Source of the DNA: Candidatus Brocadia sp.
Lineage (GTDB): Bacteria > Planctomycetota > Brocadiia > Brocadiales > Brocadiaceae
Direction: 5' to 3'
Length of the DNA stretch: 32,000 nt
Assembly: GCA_021650915.1 (NCBI GenBank)
Contig: CP091279.1
Coordinates: forward strand, 2,940,001-2,972,000
Part shown: piece after piece, positions 3,482 to 13,282 of the stretch
Position numbering within the stretch: the stretch's first letter is position 1
How the letters are laid out: each line of letters starts with the position of its first letter
The notes under the pieces: generated by a model
What the model was told of the DNA's origin: nothing
What the model saw: only the letters and a program-made list of their open reading frames with translations
Database searches by the model: none
Made by a program: the position numbers and the translations under genes

Positions 3482-3522
3482 ACTTCGGATTACAATACAA
3501 ATTATTATTTTTGCTCAGACAA

Positions 3523-3741
3523 CTACTTGTTCAACCATTCATCTTTCGTAATCTCTGCTTGTCTTAAAAGTCGCGTTAAAAACCCGATGCCAATTTCTGA
3601 TTCATGCTTATTGGGAATTATAACCGTCTGAGTTCCTTTCTTCATTTTTGGATGCTTTCCACCGAAGAACGGCCCTTCAAAACCAAGCTCCTTCATCCGT
3701 GAAACAAACTCTTGCCACGTTACAGGCTTTAATTTCTCCAT
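3523..3741 (-). CDS. hicA: HicA-family type II toxin (mRNA interferase)
   Basis: 72 aa. The WQEFVSRMKELGFEG..GGKHPKMKKGTQTVIIPNKHESEIGIGFLTRLLRQAEI pattern is typical of HicA/YcfA. Its start overlaps the hicB stop (TAATG). Confidence 0.8.
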   Translation of the reverse strand: MEKLKPVTWQEFVSRMKELGFEGPFFGGKHPKMKKGTQTVIIPNKHESEIGIGFLTRLLRQAEITKDEWLNK

Positions 3742-3986
3742 TATGTGACATGTTCTACAACATTAAGGTTTATGCCTTCAATTACAGGCAACTCGAGGTT
3801 GTTCTTTAACCTGAAAACAATCCATTCTTCCAATGCCTCTCTCAGTTCATCCCTGCATCTTTCAAGGGTTTCTGCCTTCCCCCATACACCTTGAAGGCCA
3901 GAAATTTCTCCCCAATATGTTCCTTCGCCTTCGATTATTTCATAATGGGCAAGCCCCATTGCCTTTTGAATATACTCTGTTAACAT
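3741..3986 (-). CDS. hicB: HicB-family antitoxin (short, N-terminal HicB fold only)
   Basis: 81 aa. YEIIEGEGTYWGEISGLQGVWGKAETLERCRDELREALEEWI matches the HicB N-terminal domain pattern. It lies immediately upstream of hicA and is coupled to it. Confidence 0.75.
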   Translation of the reverse strand: MLTEYIQKAMGLAHYEIIEGEGTYWGEISGLQGVWGKAETLERCRDELREALEEWIVFRLKNNLELPVIEGINLNVVEHVT

Positions 3987-4099
3987 GGTAGTTCCTGCTA
4001 TAAAAATAGGGTAACAATTTAGCTTTTTGAAAATTTCTCGTATCTATTCAGCGTACTTTCGCTCACAATCACTACGAGTGAACAAAATATCGATTCTGT

Positions 4100-7208: not shown

Positions 7209-7622
7209 TTATTCTCCCATGACTTTTATAATCACCCGCTTGCTGCGCTGGCCGTCAAATTCGGCATAAAACACCTTCTGCCACTGGCCGAGGTCTAGCT
7301 TCCCCTCTGTTACCGGTATTACTACCTGATGTCCGAGCAGGAGGTTTCTGAGGTGTGCATCACCATTCACCTCACCGGTTCTATGATGATAATAATCATG
7401 GCCTTCCGGAATCAGCTTGAGCATCCACTCTTCGATATCCCGATGGAGTCCTGGTTCTGCATCATTCACAAAGATCCCCGACGTTATATGCATGGCAGAC
7501 ACCAAAATCATACCCTCTTTAATGCCACTCTTCTGCAAGACCCGTTCTATCTCCCGGGTAATATTAATAAACTCACGGCGCTTTTTGGTTTGAAATGTCA
7601 GATATTCGGTCAGATATTTCAT
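7209..7622 (-). CDS. yjbQ: YjbQ/UPF0047 family protein (secondary thiamine-phosphate synthase)
   Basis: 137 aa. Motifs [56 protein letters not shown] are typical of UPF0047. Confidence 0.85.
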
Positions 7623-7660
7623 AGGAAAAACCTTATTATTTCGATGCTCAGAAGTTTTAA

Positions 7661-7836
7661 ATTAGCTCTTCAGCGACCTTCTCAATGTAGAGCGACGAGC
7701 CTCGTCGCTTTACAAATGCAGCTTTGAATTTCCTTATCATTTAATTAGGCCTTCAGCGACTTTTTAGTATAAGGTTAAACCCATCCCTGAATCCCCTCCC
7801 AGGAGGGGATTTCTTTCGTCCCCTCTTGAGAGGGGG
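7661..7836. repeat. Cluster of intergenic repeats: a 20-bp direct repeat x2, a GC palindrome, and two CCCC..GGGG hairpins
   Basis: Direct repeat ATTAGCTCTTCAGCGACCTT (7661-7680) and ATTAGGCCTTCAGCGACTTT (7744-7763), 17/20 identical. Palindrome AGCGACGAG-c-CTCGTCGCT (7691-7709). Hairpins ATCCCCTCC-ca-GGAGGGGAT (7791-7810) and CCCCTCT-tg-AGAGGGG (7820-7835). Confidence 0.75.
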
Positions 7837-8181
7837 TTGGGAGTGTGTAAGGCAGAAGCAGAAAGATTGAAACTCCTATAACTCAGTTTTGAATCCTATC
7901 CCTTCATGAGAACCATTGGAATTCGTATGCCAGTACTTCACTTTCCGTTCTACTCGTTAAAAATCAAATTTTACCAGTAATCTTAAGCTATTCAAGAAAA
8001 TTTCATTATTTTTCCGTCATCCCCCTTAGCCCTTCGTTCTCAGCCTTGTCTCACCTGCGCAATCCATTATTTATTGGTGGAAAATCCGCAAGCCATAATT
8101 TGATTATACGAAAAAGAGATACCTTGTTATTTTTTTGGAAATTTTCTACTTCTGACAGCTGAGGTTTCACTCATTAAAAAC

Positions 8182-8210
8182 TTGACATTGTTTTGCCAAT
8201 TACTTAATAT
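8182..8210 (+). promoter_or_regulatory. Sigma-70-like promoter upstream of the tcmP/DUF5131 pair
   Basis: TTGACA (8182-8187), a 17-nt spacer, then TAATAT (8205-8210), about 160 nt upstream of the tcmP ATG. An AAGGA Shine-Dalgarno-like motif sits about 11 nt before the ATG at 8371. Sequence match only; no experimental support. Confidence 0.45.
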
Positions 8211-8248
8211 ACCGGCAAATAGTCTACAGAGCTTATTATATGCCCAAA

Positions 8249-8307
8249 TAGCCGTATAATTAAGTCATCAGTAACCGTATTATAGGTACTAATAGCCATA
8301 AAATAAG
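8249..8307 (+). promoter_or_regulatory. Three degenerate direct repeats at 21-23 bp spacing between the promoter and the tcmP start (possible operator)
   Basis: TAGCCGTATAATTAAG (8249), TAACCGTATTATAGG (8272), TAGCCATAAAATAAG (8293). The shared core is TA(G/A)CC(G/A)TA.A.T.A.G. The spacing is about two helical turns. Confidence 0.3.
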
Positions 8308-8370
8308 ACAGCTAATTCAAATAAGTAATATCTTAAAACTATTCATTAGTACAAACAAGGAATATCAGAA

Positions 8371-9525
8371 ATGGTTAACAATAGTTTTTTCGAAGAACAG
8401 AAAGAACAATCACTAGTTAAGTCCATTATCGTTGCCAAGTATTTTGATGTCTGGGCAAACGTTATTATCAACACACAAAAGAAATATCCACAGTATCCCC
8501 AGAAAATTGCCTATATTGATCTTTTTGCCGGTCCCGGGCGTTATAAAGACGGTACCCAATCTACACCAATAAAAATATTGACCAGCGCCATTGCCAAGCC
8601 AGATTTGCGAGATCGACTGGTTGCCATATTCAATGATAAGGATGAAAACAATTCAAAAACTTTACGGGCAGCTATAAACAACATTCCTGGAATTGAGACG
8701 TTGCGCTACCAACCAGAAGTTTACAATGAGGAAGTTGGCGACGAGATTGTCAAGATGTTTGAAAACATGAATCTGATGCCAACATTGTTTTTTGTCGATC
8801 CCTGGGGTTATAAAGGGCTTTCGCTTGGCTTGGTTAACTCTGTATTAAAAGATTGGGGGTGTGATGCCATTTTCTTTTTTAATTACAATCGTATCAATAT
8901 GGGCATTGATAACGAAGACGTGAGGCAACACATGAATGAATTGTTTGGCGAAGAACGAGCCGAAGAATTGCGTAAAAAAATCAGGAACAAAAATCCAGAA
9001 GAAAGAGAATTATTCATTGTCGAAGAATTATGTCAGGCTTTAAAAGCGTATGGTTCAAGGTATGTATTGCCTTTCAGATTCAAAAATGACCGAGGGAAAA
9101 GAACAAGTCATCATTTAATCTTTGTAAGCAAACATTTTCGCGGTTATGAAATCATGAAAGATATTATGGCTCGTGAAAGCACTAGCAATATGCAAGATGT
9201 GCCGTCATTTGAATATAACCCAGCTGATTTACTGCCCAAACAGATGCTTCTATTTATGCTTTTCCGCCCGCTCGATGATTTGAGGGATAGTTTGCTGCAA
9301 ACATTCAAAGGACAAAGATTAAGAATGCAAAAAATTTACGAACAACATAATGTAGACACGCCTTACATAAAAAAGAATTACAAAGATATCTTACGTCAAT
9401 TGTATGATGAAGACATTATCCAAGCCGTTTCATCGAAAGGCAAGCCGCCGAAGAAAGATACCTTTGGAGATGATATTCTGGTAACTTTTCCTAAAAGGAT
9501 AAAGCAATGGCAAGCAGTAAAATAG
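8371..9525 (+). CDS. tcmP: Three-Cys-motif partner protein TcmP-like (uncharacterised; Rossmann/methyltransferase-like motifs)
   Basis: 384 aa, adjacent to and overlapping a Gp37/Gp68 (DUF5131) gene, the defining context of the TcmP family. Contains IDLFAGPG (aa 49-56), an acidic FNDKD strand end (aa 87-91) and FFVDPWGY (aa 140-147). Order and spacing resemble class-I SAM-methyltransferase motifs I, II and IV. Confidence 0.7.
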   Translation: MVNNSFFEEQKEQSLVKSIIVAKYFDVWANVIINTQKKYPQYPQKIAYIDLFAGPGRYKDGTQSTPIKILTSAIAKPDLRDRLVAIFNDKDENNSKTLRAAINNIPGIETLRYQPEVYNEEVGDEIVKMFENMNLMPTLFFVDPWGYKGLSLGLVNSVLKDWGCDAIFFFNYNRINMGIDNEDVRQHMNELFGEERAEELRKKIRNKNPEERELFIVEELCQALKAYGSRYVLPFRFKNDRGKRTSHHLIFVSKHFRGYEIMKDIMARESTSNMQDVPSFEYNPADLLPKQMLLFMLFRPLDDLRDSLLQTFKGQRLRMQKIYEQHNVDTPYIKKNYKDILRQLYDEDIIQAVSSKGKPPKKDTFGDDILVTFPKRIKQWQAVK

Positions 9526-10295
9526 AATGGACAGAATCTACGTGGAATCCGGTTACCGGCTGCACCAAAATTAGTGCCGGTTGCAAAAACTGTTATGCGG
9601 AACGTCTGGCTAAAAGACTAAAAGCCATGGGACAGCCCAATTATAAAAATGGGTTTAAACTTACACTGCACGAACAAGTGTTGGAATATCCGTTACAATG
9701 GAAAAAACCGCAAACCATTTTTGTGAATTCTATGAGCGATTTATTTCATGAAGAAATTCCGGATGAGTTTATCTTTAAAGTATTTGATGTGATGAAGCGG
9801 GCGTATTGGCACAGATTCCAAATTTTAACAAAGCGTTCCGTCCGTTTAAAGGAAATGGCTTCATTGCTTGATTGGCCTGAAAATGTTTGGATGGGAGTGA
9901 GTGTTGAAAATTTATTGGCTAAATACCGGATTGATGATCTGAAAGCAGTTCCTGCATTTATTCGCTTTCTTTCTTTTGAGCCCTTATTAAGTCCACTTGG
10001 TCATTTGGTTTTGGGTGATATTCACTGGGTAATTGTTGGGGGAGAATCAGGGCCAAAGGCCAGGCCAATGAAAAAAGAATGGGTAGTTCAAATTAGAGGA
10101 CAATGTATTGAACAAGGTGTACCGTTCTTTTTCAAGCAATGGGGTGGAATCAATAAAAAGAAAACCGGAAGACTACTGGAAGGACGGACATGGGATGAGA
10201 TACCTTTGAAACTCATTGAACTTGAAGAAGAAATTGAGCATGACAAATCGCTGCGCCTGACCGCTATTCCGCTGGCGCTCCATAGCGGCAGGTGA
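9507..10295 (+). CDS. Phage Gp37/Gp68 family protein (DUF5131), three-Cys motif
   Basis: 262 aa. IEWTESTWNPVTGCTKISAGCKNCYAE (C19-x6-C26-x2-C29), IFVNSMSDLFHE, FQILTKR, FLSFEPLL, HWVIVGGESGPKARPM and PFFFKQWGG are the conserved blocks of this family. It overlaps tcmP by 19 nt. Confidence 0.85.
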   Translation: MASSKIEWTESTWNPVTGCTKISAGCKNCYAERLAKRLKAMGQPNYKNGFKLTLHEQVLEYPLQWKKPQTIFVNSMSDLFHEEIPDEFIFKVFDVMKRAYWHRFQILTKRSVRLKEMASLLDWPENVWMGVSVENLLAKYRIDDLKAVPAFIRFLSFEPLLSPLGHLVLGDIHWVIVGGESGPKARPMKKEWVVQIRGQCIEQGVPFFFKQWGGINKKKTGRLLEGRTWDEIPLKLIELEEEIEHDKSLRLTAIPLALHSGR

Positions 10296-10303
10296 ACTCG
10301 GGT

Positions 10304-10732
10304 GTTGAACGAAACCGCTTCGCGGCTGCATTTCAGAGAGAAGAGATTCGATAGTTTGTTCTTTGAACAAGGAAGAATTATTTGCCAGGCTTACCGGGAT
10401 TGATCCCCGGATATGCCATTGTTGTGGAAAAGGCACGATGGTGAGGAGAGAAACATTACACCCCCTCATTCATGCGCCCCTTGGGAAGGGCTAATTTCAG
10501 TCTTGATTTATTCCCACGGGAAGTGTATTGTTACCATACCAAGGGGAGAGGTACGCCCTTTTTGAGCAAACACCTTGAAAGAATACCTGAATTTTCAATA
10601 TGTCTCTGGAAAAACATGATGTTTCCGAAAGCATTATTGACAAATATCAACGACACAAGCAACAAAAACAGTATTTTACCCAGAAGCCGTACGATTGAAT
10701 CCCCATAGTGGGGAGCAGCGGCTTCGTTCAAC
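10304..10732. mobile_element. 429-bp segment bounded by 18-bp inverted repeats (16/18); probable decayed mobile-element scar
   Basis: Left arm GTTGAACGAAACCGCTTC (10304-10321). The reverse complement of the right arm 10715-10732 is GTTGAACGAAGCCGCTGC. The segment starts 9 nt after the DUF5131 stop and contains the transposase-tail remnant listed next, plus a CCCCA-tag-TGGGG hairpin (10701-10713). Confidence 0.4.
10309..10495 (+). pseudogene. Remnant of the C-terminal tail of an IS91-family (Y2) transposase
   Basis: A 62-codon open frame without a start ends ..SLNKEELFARLTGIDPRICHCCGKGTMVRRETLHPLIHAPLGKG*. The 'tGiD...C..CgkGtM' ending resembles IS91-family transposase C-termini. Recognised from memory only; there is no upstream transposase body. 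Confidence 0.35.
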
Positions 10733-10850
10733 GGTATTTTATCCGTAATTGAGCTTGCGAAGAGACAATGATAAGATTATTTCTCTTTTCGCAAATTCAG
10801 ACAAAGCTGGTGCGTTTTTTTATTCGGCTCAAATACGGATAAAATACTTA

Positions 10851-11924
10851 ATGTTAGGCACACCGAATACAGGCATTCGCATGGCGGCACGCATTGCAAT
10901 TTATGGTGGCACTGACTTACCGCGAGAACTTGTTGAATTCGTGCGTTGCCTAACCCGCAGTTTTCTCGCAATCCAAGATGTTGTCCTGGTCAGTGGCGGC
11001 TTTAAGTGTTTCAAGAAGTATCCCGACCGCATCTCTGTTGATCTCGCAGTATTGCGTGCGGCTAAGCGGTACATTAGCCAACCTCAGGATTTCGACCAAC
11101 GATTTGAAACGTGGCTCCCCGCAGAGAAGCTAGATCGTCCAAGCGATCAGGTCGAACGCTTCGCGGAAGGTACGGTCCACAGAATTCCAGGGACGGATCA
11201 AGCTAGACGTTTCAACTTAGTCAGGGCGGCTGACGGCCTGGTAACGATCATCGGCAAGGGAAATACTCGCACCGTTCTGGAGTTGGCATTGGCTCTGGAC
11301 AAACCAGCTTTGCCAATTGCCTTCACAGGAGGTGACTCAAAGAGCTTATGGGACGCCAATCGCGAGGAGTTCATCAAGTCTCTCAACCTTCATCCCCAGC
11401 TGACCAGCCGCCTTCAGGGTGATCCTCCGCCGCTGGCGGAAGTGGAAGGCCTTGCCAAGGAAATCGCTCAGGCTGTTTATGAAGCCGCGAAGAAACGCTG
11501 CTTGGTTCTGATGCCATTCGGATCTGAGCATGATGACTTTTATCAGAACGTACTTCGTGACGCGATCGAACGAGCAAACTACATCCCATATCGAATCGAT
11601 ATCGATGCCTACGCAGGAAATATTCCGTCTCTATTCCTATCCTCGTTGGAATGCGCTCGGTCGGTAGTCGTTGACGTCACTGGCCGGAATCCCAATGTGA
11701 TGTATGAGCTTGGCCAGGTCCATGCTCGTGGAATCAACCCGTTAATCATTGATCGTCGGCAACAGTCCAAGATGGATGCTGGCGCAATGCCGTTCTATCT
11801 GCGTCATGAGAAGCTGGTCAGTGAAGAGAATAACGAAGCCGGTCACCGTAGAATCGCCAACGTGCTAACGCAATACCTAAACGCTGTGGCTAAGAATGCA
11901 GATGAATATCGACGCCAACCATGA
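10851..11924 (+). CDS. SLOG-like domain + TIR-like / nucleoside 2-deoxyribosyltransferase-fold domain fusion protein
   Basis: The ORF is open from TTG at 10749. I prefer ATG at 10851 (alternative ATG at 10881). N-terminal half: RIAIYGG..VVLVSGGFKC..LVTIIGKGNTRTVLELALALDKPALPIAFTGGDS (GG / GxGT..E / GG pattern of SMF-DprA-LOG-type domains). C-terminal half: CLVLMPFGSEHDDFYQNVLRDAIE..YRIDID..SLFLSSLECARSVVVDVTGRNPNVMYELGQVHARGINPLII (the MPF..D..NpNV-YE-G-AhA pattern of TIR-like/NDT-fold domains). Sampled 60-nt lines are 55-67% GC versus 37% in the neighbouring genes. Confidence 0.6.
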   Translation: MLGTPNTGIRMAARIAIYGGTDLPRELVEFVRCLTRSFLAIQDVVLVSGGFKCFKKYPDRISVDLAVLRAAKRYISQPQDFDQRFETWLPAEKLDRPSDQVERFAEGTVHRIPGTDQARRFNLVRAADGLVTIIGKGNTRTVLELALALDKPALPIAFTGGDSKSLWDANREEFIKSLNLHPQLTSRLQGDPPPLAEVEGLAKEIAQAVYEAAKKRCLVLMPFGSEHDDFYQNVLRDAIERANYIPYRIDIDAYAGNIPSLFLSSLECARSVVVDVTGRNPNVMYELGQVHARGINPLIIDRRQQSKMDAGAMPFYLRHEKLVSEENNEAGHRRIANVLTQYLNAVAKNADEYRRQP

Positions 11925-11945
11925 ACGCTTGCAACAGGGTGGCCT

Positions 11946-12077
11946 GCCTAACGAGTGCTTGCAGCCGACCCGCCTTACGTCTGCGGTGTCCTGCGGTTCG
12001 CGGCGCTGCTTGCTGCCTGCGGCGTCCATCGTTCCGCTCTCCGCTGTGCGGTGGTCGGCTGAAGCCGAACGTTGTAC
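11946..12077 (+). other. Integron attC-like imperfect palindrome immediately 3' of the SLOG/TIR-like gene
   Basis: GCCTAAC (11946-11952, fits RYYYAAC) and GTTGTAC (12071-12077, fits GTTRRRY with one mismatch). AACG/CGTT pair. Unpaired spacers are AGTG and CCGAA. A 12-bp stem pairs CTT[G]CAGCCGACC (11958-11970) with GGTCGGCTGAAG (12053-12064), leaving a single bulged G. The 82-nt central region is GC-rich. Total length 132 bp. Confidence 0.4.
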
Positions 12078-12451
12078 GTAAACAATGCAATGAGAGGGGT
12101 AATCCATTGGGAAAACCTGAAGTCGAATCCACGATGCAAGTATATTGTGATTGTACAAATAAAAAAGGCGAAGTTATATATTCATCAGTGAATACTACAT
12201 GGATATGTAAATCTGAATAGCTTGATACAGTGAAAAGCGGCATTTTTTCTTCGGTAAATCGGTTCAAATATTATTGGGCATGCTTAAATTGTGAAAAAAC
12301 ACGAGATGTCGGCATATGGGACACCGAAGGAAACTCATAGGGTGTAAAAAGATAGACTACCATTTATATGCCCTGCGCATGTCAAGGGGAAAAACTTTTT
12401 TGTATACCATAATATTTGCAGACATGTTAAAATTCTTTAGGAGGTAAATCT

Positions 12452-12670
12452 ATGGCAACTACATACGTTAAAGACGATCTCATCGCCCAGGTTGAAAAAC
12501 TTCCTTACGACCTACAACTTCGGGTGCTTGATTTTGTTAAATCTTTGATTCCCAAAGGGGTTACAGGGAAAAATCTTTTACAATTTGAAGGAACTATTCC
12601 CGTTGATGATTTAGAGAGAATGTCTAAAGCAATAGAGGAATGTGAGAAGGTAGACACCAGTGAATGGTAG
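12452..12670 (+). CDS. Type II antitoxin (DUF2281/VapB-like) partner of the PIN toxin
   Basis: 72 aa. LIAQVEKLPYDLQLRVLDFVKSL resembles the DUF2281-type antitoxin N-terminus. An AGGAGG Shine-Dalgarno motif sits 8 nt upstream. It overlaps the downstream PIN gene by 11 nt. Confidence 0.65.
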   Translation: MATTYVKDDLIAQVEKLPYDLQLRVLDFVKSLIPKGVTGKNLLQFEGTIPVDDLERMSKAIEECEKVDTSEW

Positions 12671-13049
12671 ATTTCTTCTCGATACCAATATAATAATTGC
12701 TCTCTTTGCTAAAGACCCGAAAATTCATGACCGCATGGCTAATGCTGAGGAAATCTTTGTCTCATGCATTGCTATCGGAGAGATGTATTTTGGAGCTTAC
12801 AAATCGCTTAAAATTCAAGAAAATATCAGTCGTATTGATGAATTCGTACTTAAGAATACCGTGCTTTCATGCAATACCGAAACAGCAAAGATATACGGTA
12901 ACATAAAGAATCGTTTAAAAGACAAAGGACAGCCAATTCCAGAAAATGACATATGGCTCGCTGCAATCGCTCAGCAATATGGTCTAATATTAGTCACTAA
13001 AGATTCCCACTTCGATGCGATTGAAAATTTAAAAATTGAAAAATGGTAA
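12660..13049 (+). CDS. vapC: PIN-domain ribonuclease toxin VapC
   Basis: 129 aa, GTG start. FLLDTNIIIALF (first acidic residue), IAIGEMYFG, and IPENDIWLAAIAQQYGLILVTKDSHF (conserved D residues) are typical of VapC. Confidence 0.85.
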   Translation: MNGRFLLDTNIIIALFAKDPKIHDRMANAEEIFVSCIAIGEMYFGAYKSLKIQENISRIDEFVLKNTVLSCNTETAKIYGNIKNRLKDKGQPIPENDIWLAAIAQQYGLILVTKDSHFDAIENLKIEKW

Positions 13050-13109
13050 TATCGTTTGACCGCAAGACCAGATTGAGAAATATAAGACCGCGTACAACAA
13101 AAGCATCGA

Positions 13110-13160
13110 GAGGGACGGGGAATAGCTGTCGGATTTCATATTTTATATTCCCTGCCCCTC
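13110..13160. repeat. 15-bp imperfect inverted repeat (13/15) between convergent vapC and nadB
   Basis: GAGGGACGGGGAATA (13110-13124) and TATTCCCTGCCCCTC (13146-13160), with a 21-nt loop. It may be a bidirectional terminator-like hairpin, but no clear U-tract follows. Confidence 0.6.
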
Positions 13161-13282
13161 ATGCTTGCCGTTGAGCTTCTTGAGCGGGGGACATGGTCAG
13201 AGGTCAGATTTGTGATTACGGATTTTATTATTGCGGTGAAATAACGGAGGACTCTCAGGTCGGCTATCCCTTGCGATTCGGA

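Follow-up and report, generated by a model that had tools for sequence, protein, structure and literature searches.

The window analysed here is a stretch of 32,000 nucleotides from the chromosome of Candidatus Brocadia sp. (GCA_021650915.1, contig CP091279.1, positions 2,940,001 to 2,972,000). It carries, on its forward strand, two adjacent genes, encoding a TcmP protein and a protein of the DUF5131 (Gp37/Gp68) family. An earlier reading, made from the letters alone and called here the sequence-only reading, had singled them out as a possible nucleic-acid modification or anti-phage module, dependent on S-adenosylmethionine (SAM) and iron-sulphur chemistry. Both open reading frames (ORFs) are intact and, as that reading had stated, share 19 nt; the low G+C content that it reported for the region is also found (36.7–37.7% across 8–10 kb, as compared to 44–53% in the flanks). 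The features of the locus are listed below; the remaining ones, located downstream, are listed where the surrounding array is described.

8017–10304, forward strand: cassette 1, made up of leader, tcmP, DUF5131 gene and the part of attC-1 before the G|TT crossover; on the 5' side its limit is tentative, the 3' end is set by the R' box GTTGAAC at 10304–10310
8182–8210, forward strand: TTGACA-17-TAATAT, a motif of sigma-70 type and possibly a local promoter; the sole exact match in the window (10/12 in a consensus scan)
8371–9525, forward strand: tcmP, 384 aa, with a predicted class I SAM methyltransferase-fold domain at about aa 1–270 and a C-terminal winged helix (PF22560) at aa 281–357
9507–10295, forward strand: DUF5131 (Gp37/Gp68 family) gene, 262 aa, putatively a divergent radical SAM-type protein, with the motif C19-x6-C26-x2-C29
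10238–10310, forward strand: attC-1, an integron attC site of 73 nt, from R'' GCATGAC to R' GTTGAAC (nhmmer, 65.6 bits, E 2e-18)

The assignment of the two genes to the TcmP and Gp37/Gp68 families, proposed by the sequence-only reading, is supported by searches with profile hidden Markov models, at scores far above chance. TcmP matches TIGR04474 with 214.9 bits (cutoff 53), residues 12–269 covering positions 1–262 of the 263 of the model. Its C-terminus matches PF22560, a GMT-like winged helix-turn-helix (wHTH), with 73.6 bits (residues 281–357); for the N-terminal 275 residues zero Pfam matches are obtained, even at E = 10. DUF5131 matches PF07505 with 342 bits (gathering threshold 28.9), covering positions 2–243 of the 243 of the model, and PHROG 2045 at 2.3e-96. 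It also scores 83.4 bits (E 1.5e-23) with the radical SAM model TIGR04471, whose cutoff of 355 is not reached: the protein is homologous to that family, without being a member. The motifs previously pointed out are all present, namely IDLFAGPG (aa 49–56), FNDKD (87–91) and FFVDPWGY (140–147) in TcmP, and C19-x6-C26-x2-C29, GGESG (178–182) and KQWGG (210–214) in DUF5131.

The pair is of a kind already catalogued, yet uncharacterised. It corresponds to the pair of TcmP and three-Cys-motif protein in TIGRFAMs and to the PADLOC entries PDC-M30 and PDC-M41, of which both the A and the B models are matched by the adjacent genes: DUF5131 matches the B models over their full length (PDC-M41B, 399.9 bits; PDC-M30B, 388.7 bits), TcmP the A models (PDC-M30A, 85.7–89.6 bits; PDC-M41A, 29.5 bits). 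RadicalSAM.org includes DUF5131 among the subgroups of the superfamily, as Megacluster-5-2, in a cluster neighbouring spore photoproduct lyase (PMC9477430). What is added here is support at the fold level, conservation of motifs throughout the family and, above all, the recognition of an integron array of four cassettes, in which the pair is a two-gene cassette.

The identical TcmP protein is encoded, in the same context, by several Candidatus Brocadia assemblies, which places the window in an anammox planctomycete. In one B. fulgida assembly (GCA_000987375.1; locus L006, 11137–11924), DUF5131 is split into ORFs of 187 and 75 aa, and the downstream carbamoyltransferase gene is split too; these may be either assembly frameshifts or true pseudogenes.

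The AlphaFold2 model of TcmP has an average confidence (pLDDT) of 72.9, which falls below 50 for residues 144–153, within the catalytic loop. When the model is compared with the PDB by Foldseek, 68 matches are found at E <= 1e-3, and those listed are nearly all class I SAM methyltransferases. The best ones are Trm1 (2.8e-6) and RlmJ (4e-5), with probability 1.0, followed by MnmM; in a viral library, too, the matches are mostly methyltransferases. The check suggested by the sequence-only reading, a search for a Rossmann methyltransferase fold in TcmP, thus turns out in its favour.

The family comprises 2833 representative clusters at 50% identity. The window protein was aligned with 84 representatives, 37–59% identical to it: just seven columns are invariant in the 85 sequences, among them G54 and G56 of motif I and D143 and G146 of the D-P-W-G-Y loop, while D50, N88, D89, F141, P144 and Y147 are kept in at least 90% of them. 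Motif I reads D50-x-F-x-G54-x-G56; N88/D89 provide the acidic position after beta2; the motif IV-like loop is the variant D143-P144-W-G146-Y147, located in the low-confidence region of the model. The order of motifs, already recognised as methyltransferase-like, is reinforced by the alignment, where motif I and D-P-x-G-Y are the most conserved columns. The D-P-W-G-Y loop presumably recalls the D-P-F-G loop of Trm1. On sequence grounds, this pattern of conservation would be that expected of an active amino-group methyltransferase.

The AlphaFold2 model of DUF5131 (pLDDT 74) contains seven strands alternating with helices, with C19-x6-C26-x2-C29 between beta1 and alpha1. Its best PDB matches by Foldseek are LipA, LIAS, spore photoproduct lyase and SuiB, with probabilities of 0.94–0.99. 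None of C19, C26 and C29 varies among 50 close homologues or among the homologues from actinophages. From Brocadia to Gordonia and Mycobacterium phages, the cysteines and the motifs NSMSDLFH, LTKR, EPLL, GGESGP and FKQWG are identical.

Distribution was evaluated by a scan of one genome per species, which returned 416 TcmP relatives; locus analyses were carried out on the best 80, all at least 55% identical. These 80 are spread over at least 15 phyla (including Desulfobacterota, Planctomycetota, Nitrospirota, Chloroflexota, Bacteroidota, Bacillota, Cyanobacteria, Acidobacteriota, Spirochaetota and several candidate phyla) and one archaeon, a methanogen. The two genes are obligately paired: DUF5131 adjoins tcmP in 76 of the 80 loci, and of the four where it does not, two lie at the end of a contig. 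Of the 76 pairs, 64 are co-directional, most of them spaced by -31 to +17 nt; the other 12 are convergent and their ends overlap. In most pairs tcmP comes first. The overlap, from which translational coupling had been proposed, is there in the window, but such spacings and the convergent pairs indicate that coupling is not a property of the module. A conserved third gene was looked for around the pair and none was found, except for a synteny in Nostoc.

Identities to the window copies co-vary between the two proteins (r = 0.71), with similar means (64.2% for TcmP, 63.4% for DUF5131). The idea of TcmP as a faster-evolving specificity subunit was rejected on the basis of these means. Among phages, DUF5131 is found in 180 records, mostly of actinophages; TcmP is found in just five Gordonia phage records, corresponding to three distinct phages, where it is annotated as "methyltransferase".

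Apart from the attC site, divergent loci resemble each other at the DNA level only within the two ORFs. Over the final ~70 nt of the DUF5131 ORF, the DNA of four distant loci is 81–90% conserved, with indels that break the frame, and the similarity ends a few bases after the stop codon. The conserved DUF5131 protein stops near aa 233: the last 58 nt of the ORF (10238–10295) lie inside attC-1, and its final 19 codons are attC sequence. A conserved protein tail was considered for this region and rejected, since the indels of the relatives break the frame there and the sequence is that of an attC.

An exact pattern of the attC-1 core, scanned against metagenomes, returned at least 128 copies on at least 120 contigs (L091–L210), and the nhmmer model with which attC-1 was scored was built from 115 of the metagenomic copies. 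Among the matches listed, one of the at least 128 copies adjoins DUF5131, and at least 96 follow an ORF on the same strand, such ORFs belonging to at least 84 unrelated clusters; at least eight contigs contain two copies in direct orientation, 0.9–2.3 kb apart, and the commonest gene is an integron integrase, found on at least 16 contigs (TIGR02249, 470.7 bits; cutoff 265). The consensus of the family is GCCTAAC-AAGGCGCTnCACCTGACCGCTATTCCGCT-n-CTCCATAGCGGCAGGTGAGCTTGGTC-GTTAGGC, where the boxes R'' (RYYYAAC) and R' (GTTRRRY) flank a bulged hairpin. The boxes, the bulged hairpin, the varied cargo and the integrase lead to the conclusion that the element at the DUF5131 end is an attC site. The energy of the attC-1 hairpin, taken alone, is not significant (z = -0.67), and no covariation is measurable in its stems, which are left nearly invariant by the exact-core scan. 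The nearly invariant core of the family, 34 nt long, is very abundant in sediment and hydrothermal metagenomes (at least 120 contigs); the cargo, among the matches listed, includes a cluster of 623-aa DPPF-type DNA methylases and a zinc-dehydrogenase-like cluster.

In the window attC-1 is not isolated. The region from about 8017 to 13176, between yjbQ and nadB, is an array of four integron cassettes without an integrase, of the type known as CALIN (cluster of attC sites lacking an integrase). The features following cassette 1 are:

10305–10853: cassette 2, 549 nt, closed by attC-2; no recognisable gene
10726–10859, forward strand: attC-2, from R'' GTTCAAC to R' GTTAGGC; DNA hairpin z -5.5
10854–12071: cassette 3, closed by attC-3, with a SLOG/TIR-like gene
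10878–11924, forward strand: gene of cassette 3, for a SLOG-like and TIR-like protein; the start is uncertain
11946–12077, forward strand: attC-3, from R'' GCCTAAC to R' GTTGTAC; hairpin z -2.7
12452–13049, forward strand: genes of cassette 4, a VapB-like antitoxin (12452–12670) and a PIN-domain VapC (12660–13049; PF01850, 2.3e-18)
13092–13176, forward strand: attC-4, from R'' GTACAAC to R' GTTGAGC, the last in the array; hairpin z -3.45

The four attC sites, all in the same orientation, form exactly the chain expected of integron recombination at G|TT: the hexamer that follows a crossover recurs, as its reverse complement, in the R'' box closing the cassette that it opens (TTGAAC/GTTCAA, TTAGGC/GCCTAA and TTGTAC/GTACAA, all 6/6). 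At the left junction (...TTTTTCC-G|TCATCC, 8016–8022) five of the six bases match the complement of the R'' of cassette 1 (GCATGAC). Homology to the closest relative, L211, ends at 8014 and resumes at 13221, on the nadB side; in sister Brocadiaceae genomes nadB lies directly beside yjbQ, and the pair is absent there. L211 itself features, at 7701–8786 of its own locus, a different gene at the same nadB–yjbQ position (361 aa, with a weak CarboxypepD_reg match). The nadB–yjbQ intergenic site may be a recurrent insertion point.

Neither intI nor attI is found in the 32-kb window, and in a survey of ORFs and Pfam matches no gene for a tyrosine recombinase was seen beside the array; cassette 1 directly adjoins native yjbQ DNA. 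The sequence-only reading had described the region as an accessory island: the mobile, conflict-related context was rightly perceived, but the integrase-less cassette array that constitutes it had gone unrecognised.

Relatives provide further cassette-borne copies. The pair of L011, L015 and L215 starts some 30 nt ahead of the ATG, with G|TTATGC, and is closed by an attC whose first bases are GCATAAC (in L015 TCATAAC, with one mismatch), so that the start matches its own R'' (TTATGC with GCATAA); in that subclade, the two genes thus form a true cassette. In L011 and L215 another attC lies immediately upstream of it. L016 carries the pair with a different attC, and L214 does not fit the complementarity seen at the 5' end of cassette 1. 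Cassette-borne pairs are found, as a minimum, in the window and in L011, L013, L015, L016, L020, L021/L135, L214 and L215. For a wider survey a home-made attC finder was tried and dropped as unspecific (12 of 62 loci were positive, and 51 of 395 random windows).

The promoter-like motif belongs to the leader of cassette 1, 160 nt upstream of the tcmP ATG. L214, a 95%-identical relative, aligns with the window only from 8314 on, and other relatives show nothing similar upstream of the ATG; the motif is thus contained in a segment of 297 nt (8017–8313) unique to the Brocadia copy. The sequence-only reading had credited the module with its own consensus promoter. The string is present, and unique in the window, but promoter-like sites in the region are as frequent as in shuffled sequences (9 and 8.8, respectively) and the segment has no counterpart in relatives, so that the promoter is not a property of the module. 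It may rather have been acquired locally, which would be sensible for an array that lost the integron promoter Pc.

As for the other cassettes, the gene of cassette 3 features weak matches with PF18306 (E 0.015), PF18185 (STALD, E 0.03) and a PADLOC TIR effector (E 0.0013), together with a match to PHROG 3634 at 1.7e-9; its product may, by these matches, be a SLOG and TIR-like defence protein. Its G+C content of 52.8% points to a foreign origin. The listed TTG start, at 10749, falls inside attC-2, indicating that the true start lies downstream; an ATG at 10851 straddles the crossover. Among the ORFs of cassette 2 no Pfam match is found, and the cassette may be empty, decayed or non-coding. The "transposase scar" reported in the region by the sequence-only reading receives no Pfam match; an IS91-like fragment, suspected in cassette 2, was likewise discarded for lack of Pfam support.

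The two toxin-antitoxin modules that had been noticed are both real: besides VapB/PIN-VapC of cassette 4, a HicA/HicB-like pair is found. The latter, at about 3520–3990, lies between two genes for methylene-tetrahydrofolate reductase proteins (MTHFR and DUF5981); it is absent from that position in L211 and L212, and present in L213. A scan of 7600–10800 with Rfam returned nothing. Upstream of yjbQ, a segment of 265 nt (7641–7905), missing from L211, contains a very stable, G+C-rich hairpin at 7774–7842 (RNA dG -40.5 kcal/mol), and may be an insertion similar to a terminator or to a miniature inverted-repeat transposable element.

Elsewhere the pair is found in varied surroundings. In the Gordonia phage ThankyouJordi it is located between the integrase and the immunity repressor, a region of lysogen-expressed genes in temperate actinophages. 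Solo DUF5131 genes of phages occur in early regions, beside RecE/RecT, DNA methyltransferase, RusA and DnaQ; in prophiT36-2a another DNA methyltransferase is encoded two genes away, and in some Mycobacterium abscessus prophage records DUF5131 is labelled "RNA methyltransferase". In the immediate neighbourhood of 38 loci, the most recurrent class is that of restriction-modification (RM) or defence-type genes, in terms of raw recurrence and not of an enrichment statistic; recurrent neighbours are Type IIG RM, NgoPII, ResIII, nSTAND3, DUF4062 and HTH_3/M78. In Electrothrix the pair comes after a gene for a group II intron reverse transcriptase; in Christiangramia it is found among GIY-YIG, deaminase, NOV_C and NUDIX genes.

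In Desulfonema ishimotonii (L008, 8001–9910) the pair is inserted into an rnf/nqr operon, in the same orientation, between FMN_bind (rnfG/nqrC-like) and Rnf-Nqr (rnfE/nqrD-like) genes. From the literature, tcmP of Sinorhizobium meliloti (SMa2243) is assigned to the same putative transcription unit as hna, a validated defence gene, and both rise in nolR+ cells (PMC12445080); phage defence systems are known to reside on integron cassettes (bioRxiv 10.1101/2024.07.02.601719).

The interpretation favoured here, to which slightly better than even credence is given, is that the pair is a mobile module of two enzymes, which install or elaborate a modification of nucleic-acid bases for use in conflicts between phage and host or between mobile elements. 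In such a module TcmP would methylate its substrate with SAM as the donor, the F-x-D-P-W-G-Y loop being of the type that acts on exocyclic amino groups of bases, and the C-terminal winged helix would most likely position it on nucleic acid, probably DNA. The C-x6-C-x2-C loop of DUF5131 would bind a [4Fe-4S] cluster, and SAM-derived radical chemistry would be directed to a substrate shared with TcmP, the two proteins thus cooperating. The resulting modification would either be defensive or shield the DNA of the carrier itself. The pair would travel as an integron cassette, fixed here as the first of four in the Candidatus Brocadia chromosome. The same proposal in the sequence-only reading is partly supported by the folds, the motifs and the mobile, conflict-related context; for its defence part, the evidence is limited to gene context and to a PADLOC candidate entry that is unvalidated.

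A number of observations weigh against this interpretation. The radical SAM fold match of DUF5131 is weak (E ~1e-2, TM-score 0.3–0.44), the cysteines are spaced as C-x6-C-x2-C, instead of the canonical C-x3-C-x2-C, and the GGE-like motif lies on beta6 and not on beta2. Variant cysteine spacings are known among members of the radical SAM superfamily; the departure from the canonical motif therefore lowers the probability of membership, without excluding it. The expectation of a radical-SAM-like or other Fe-S barrel, put forward by the sequence-only reading, accordingly fares unevenly: the invariant three-Cys motif, the sub-cutoff match to TIGR04471 and the RadicalSAM.org subgroup speak for it, the structural match does so just weakly. 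Sequence and model together weakly suggest that DUF5131 is a divergent radical SAM-type enzyme.

As to TcmP, its fold matches cannot separate DNA from RNA substrates, and the top ones (Trm1, RlmJ, MnmM) are RNA enzymes. Since 180 phage records carry DUF5131 and only five carry TcmP, DUF5131 can act without its partner. The neighbourhoods are heterogeneous and include many housekeeping genes, again by raw recurrence; the PDC-M entries are candidates only; sequence matches to the PDB, searched with single sequences and profiles alike, yield only noise for both proteins. No functional study on DUF5131, TcmP, PF07505, Gp37/Gp68, PDC-M30/M41, TIGR04474/TIGR04471 or GMT-wHTH was found in the literature searched, nor any paper testing PDC-M30/M41 against phage. 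The earlier statement that neither protein has an assigned function agrees with this, but the module is less obscure than implied: the pair figures in PADLOC as PDC-M30/M41, and DUF5131 among the subgroups of RadicalSAM.org.

A bolder version, considered rather unlikely, sees in the pair a novel class of immune or epigenetic system, where radical SAM chemistry would act on DNA, as an RM-like pair with a radical enzyme in place of the nuclease or as a two-step pathway to a hypermodified base, spread across phyla by integron cassettes and temperate phages.

Different explanations may be given of the same data. The two proteins could be antagonists, as in RM systems, TcmP marking the host DNA and DUF5131 damaging unmarked DNA by radical chemistry, with an additional effect as an addiction module that stabilises the array. 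This would account for the compact two-gene cassette, for the coexistence of co-directional and convergent pairs with overlapping 3' ends (64 and 12), common among Type II systems, for a wide, selfish spread, and for the company of a toxin-antitoxin cassette in the array and of a prophage immunity region; the solo DUF5131 of prophiT36-2a, close to another DNA methyltransferase, would also fit. It is nevertheless quite unlikely: no nuclease-like domain is detected in the pair, even at permissive thresholds, a typical specificity subunit would evolve faster than its partner, which TcmP does not, and in phages, where DUF5131 is mostly without TcmP, a self-toxic effector would need other protection. 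To our knowledge, moreover, no radical SAM enzyme acts as a restriction effector.

That the pair is devoted to DNA repair or to housekeeping RNA modification, without any part in conflicts and with incidental mobility, is distinctly improbable, in view of its patchy distribution, its horizontal transfer on cassettes and prophages, its listing as a defence candidate in PADLOC and its absence from the locus in sister Brocadiaceae. DUF5131 would, in this case, either resemble spore photoproduct lyase, which is among its best fold matches and in the adjacent RadicalSAM.org cluster, or modify RNA, and TcmP would be an RNA methyltransferase, as are its best matches, which modify rRNA and tRNA. The solo DUF5131 genes beside RecE/RecT, RusA and DnaQ, in lytic or early regions, and the "RNA methyltransferase" labels in M. 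abscessus prophages would agree with such a role.

Prokaryotic viperins, radical SAM enzymes acting on nucleotides, are an established type of defence, and the defence-type context of the pair would suit a viperin-like scheme, in which DUF5131 turns a free nucleotide into an analogue that TcmP methylates, either as such or at the precursor stage, to give a product poisonous to the replication or transcription of the phage. The scheme is very unlikely, as the winged helix of TcmP is typical of proteins that bind nucleic-acid polymers, its closest folds act on RNA polymers, and the closest folds of DUF5131 include DNA-repair and protein-modifying enzymes, not viperin. Finally, a non-catalytic TcmP, sensing SAM and regulating DUF5131 or the cassette through its winged helix, is hardly credible: a SAM-binding fold joined to a wHTH and the upstream position of tcmP in most pairs would be in keeping with it, but D143-P-x-G146-Y, needless in a pure sensor, is as conserved as the SAM-binding glycines, and convergent pairs share no operon.

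Should the favoured function, a conflict-related base modification, be true, radical SAM chemistry would become tied to the marking of DNA or RNA in phage-host conflict, where, among radical SAM enzymes, we know of viperin-type nucleotide chemistry only as an established case. Thousands of genes would be annotated at once by a single biochemical result, the family being made of 2833 TcmP clusters, extremely conserved, in at least 15 phyla and in actinophages. The cassette status explains how the pair moves, with wide horizontal spread, in the absence of a recombinase of its own, and sets a minimal cloning unit of about 2.0–2.3 kb; integrase-less arrays, loaded with conflict genes, are thereby shown to occur in anammox genomes. 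With the pair and its candidate defence status already public in databases, the finding is a well-delimited experimental target.

In comparison with known systems, TcmP has in common with Trm1 (tRNA m2,2G26) and RlmJ (23S rRNA m6A2030) the class I fold, the glycine loop of motif I and a putative D-P-(aromatic) active-site loop; it differs from them in sequence, the identity being just 12–14%, and by an extra helical insertion and the C-terminal wHTH. DUF5131, whose model has a three-Cys loop after beta1 in what may be a partial beta/alpha barrel, resembles the radical SAM superfamily, as represented by spore photoproduct lyase, lipoyl synthase and TIGR04471 ("radical SAM mobile pair protein A"), and departs from it by the C-x6-C-x2-C spacing, by a score of 83 against the 355 bits of TIGR04471, and by the absence of PDB sequence matches. 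Type II RM systems are similar to the window pair as compact, mobile two-gene units with a methyltransferase and variable orientation; the pair has a putative radical SAM-type partner instead of the nuclease, and no endonuclease domain is detected.

With integron cassettes and CALIN arrays, the window has in common four attC sites in the same orientation, cassette starts that complement their own R'' (exactly in cassettes 2–4, at five of six positions at the left junction), and an attC-1 family tied to integron integrases and to varied cargo; the differences are the lack of intI and attI in the 32 kb, the uncertain 5' boundary of cassette 1, and a leader with the promoter-like motif, unique to this copy. 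The layout of two adjacent genes is the same as in PDC-M30/M41; the window TcmP matches the A models just moderately, indicating that it belongs to another subfamily. The closest correspondence is with the three-Cys-motif protein and TcmP of TIGRFAMs/NCBIfam, as the window pair fits both models and their adjacency, to which the attC site and the cassette array are here added.

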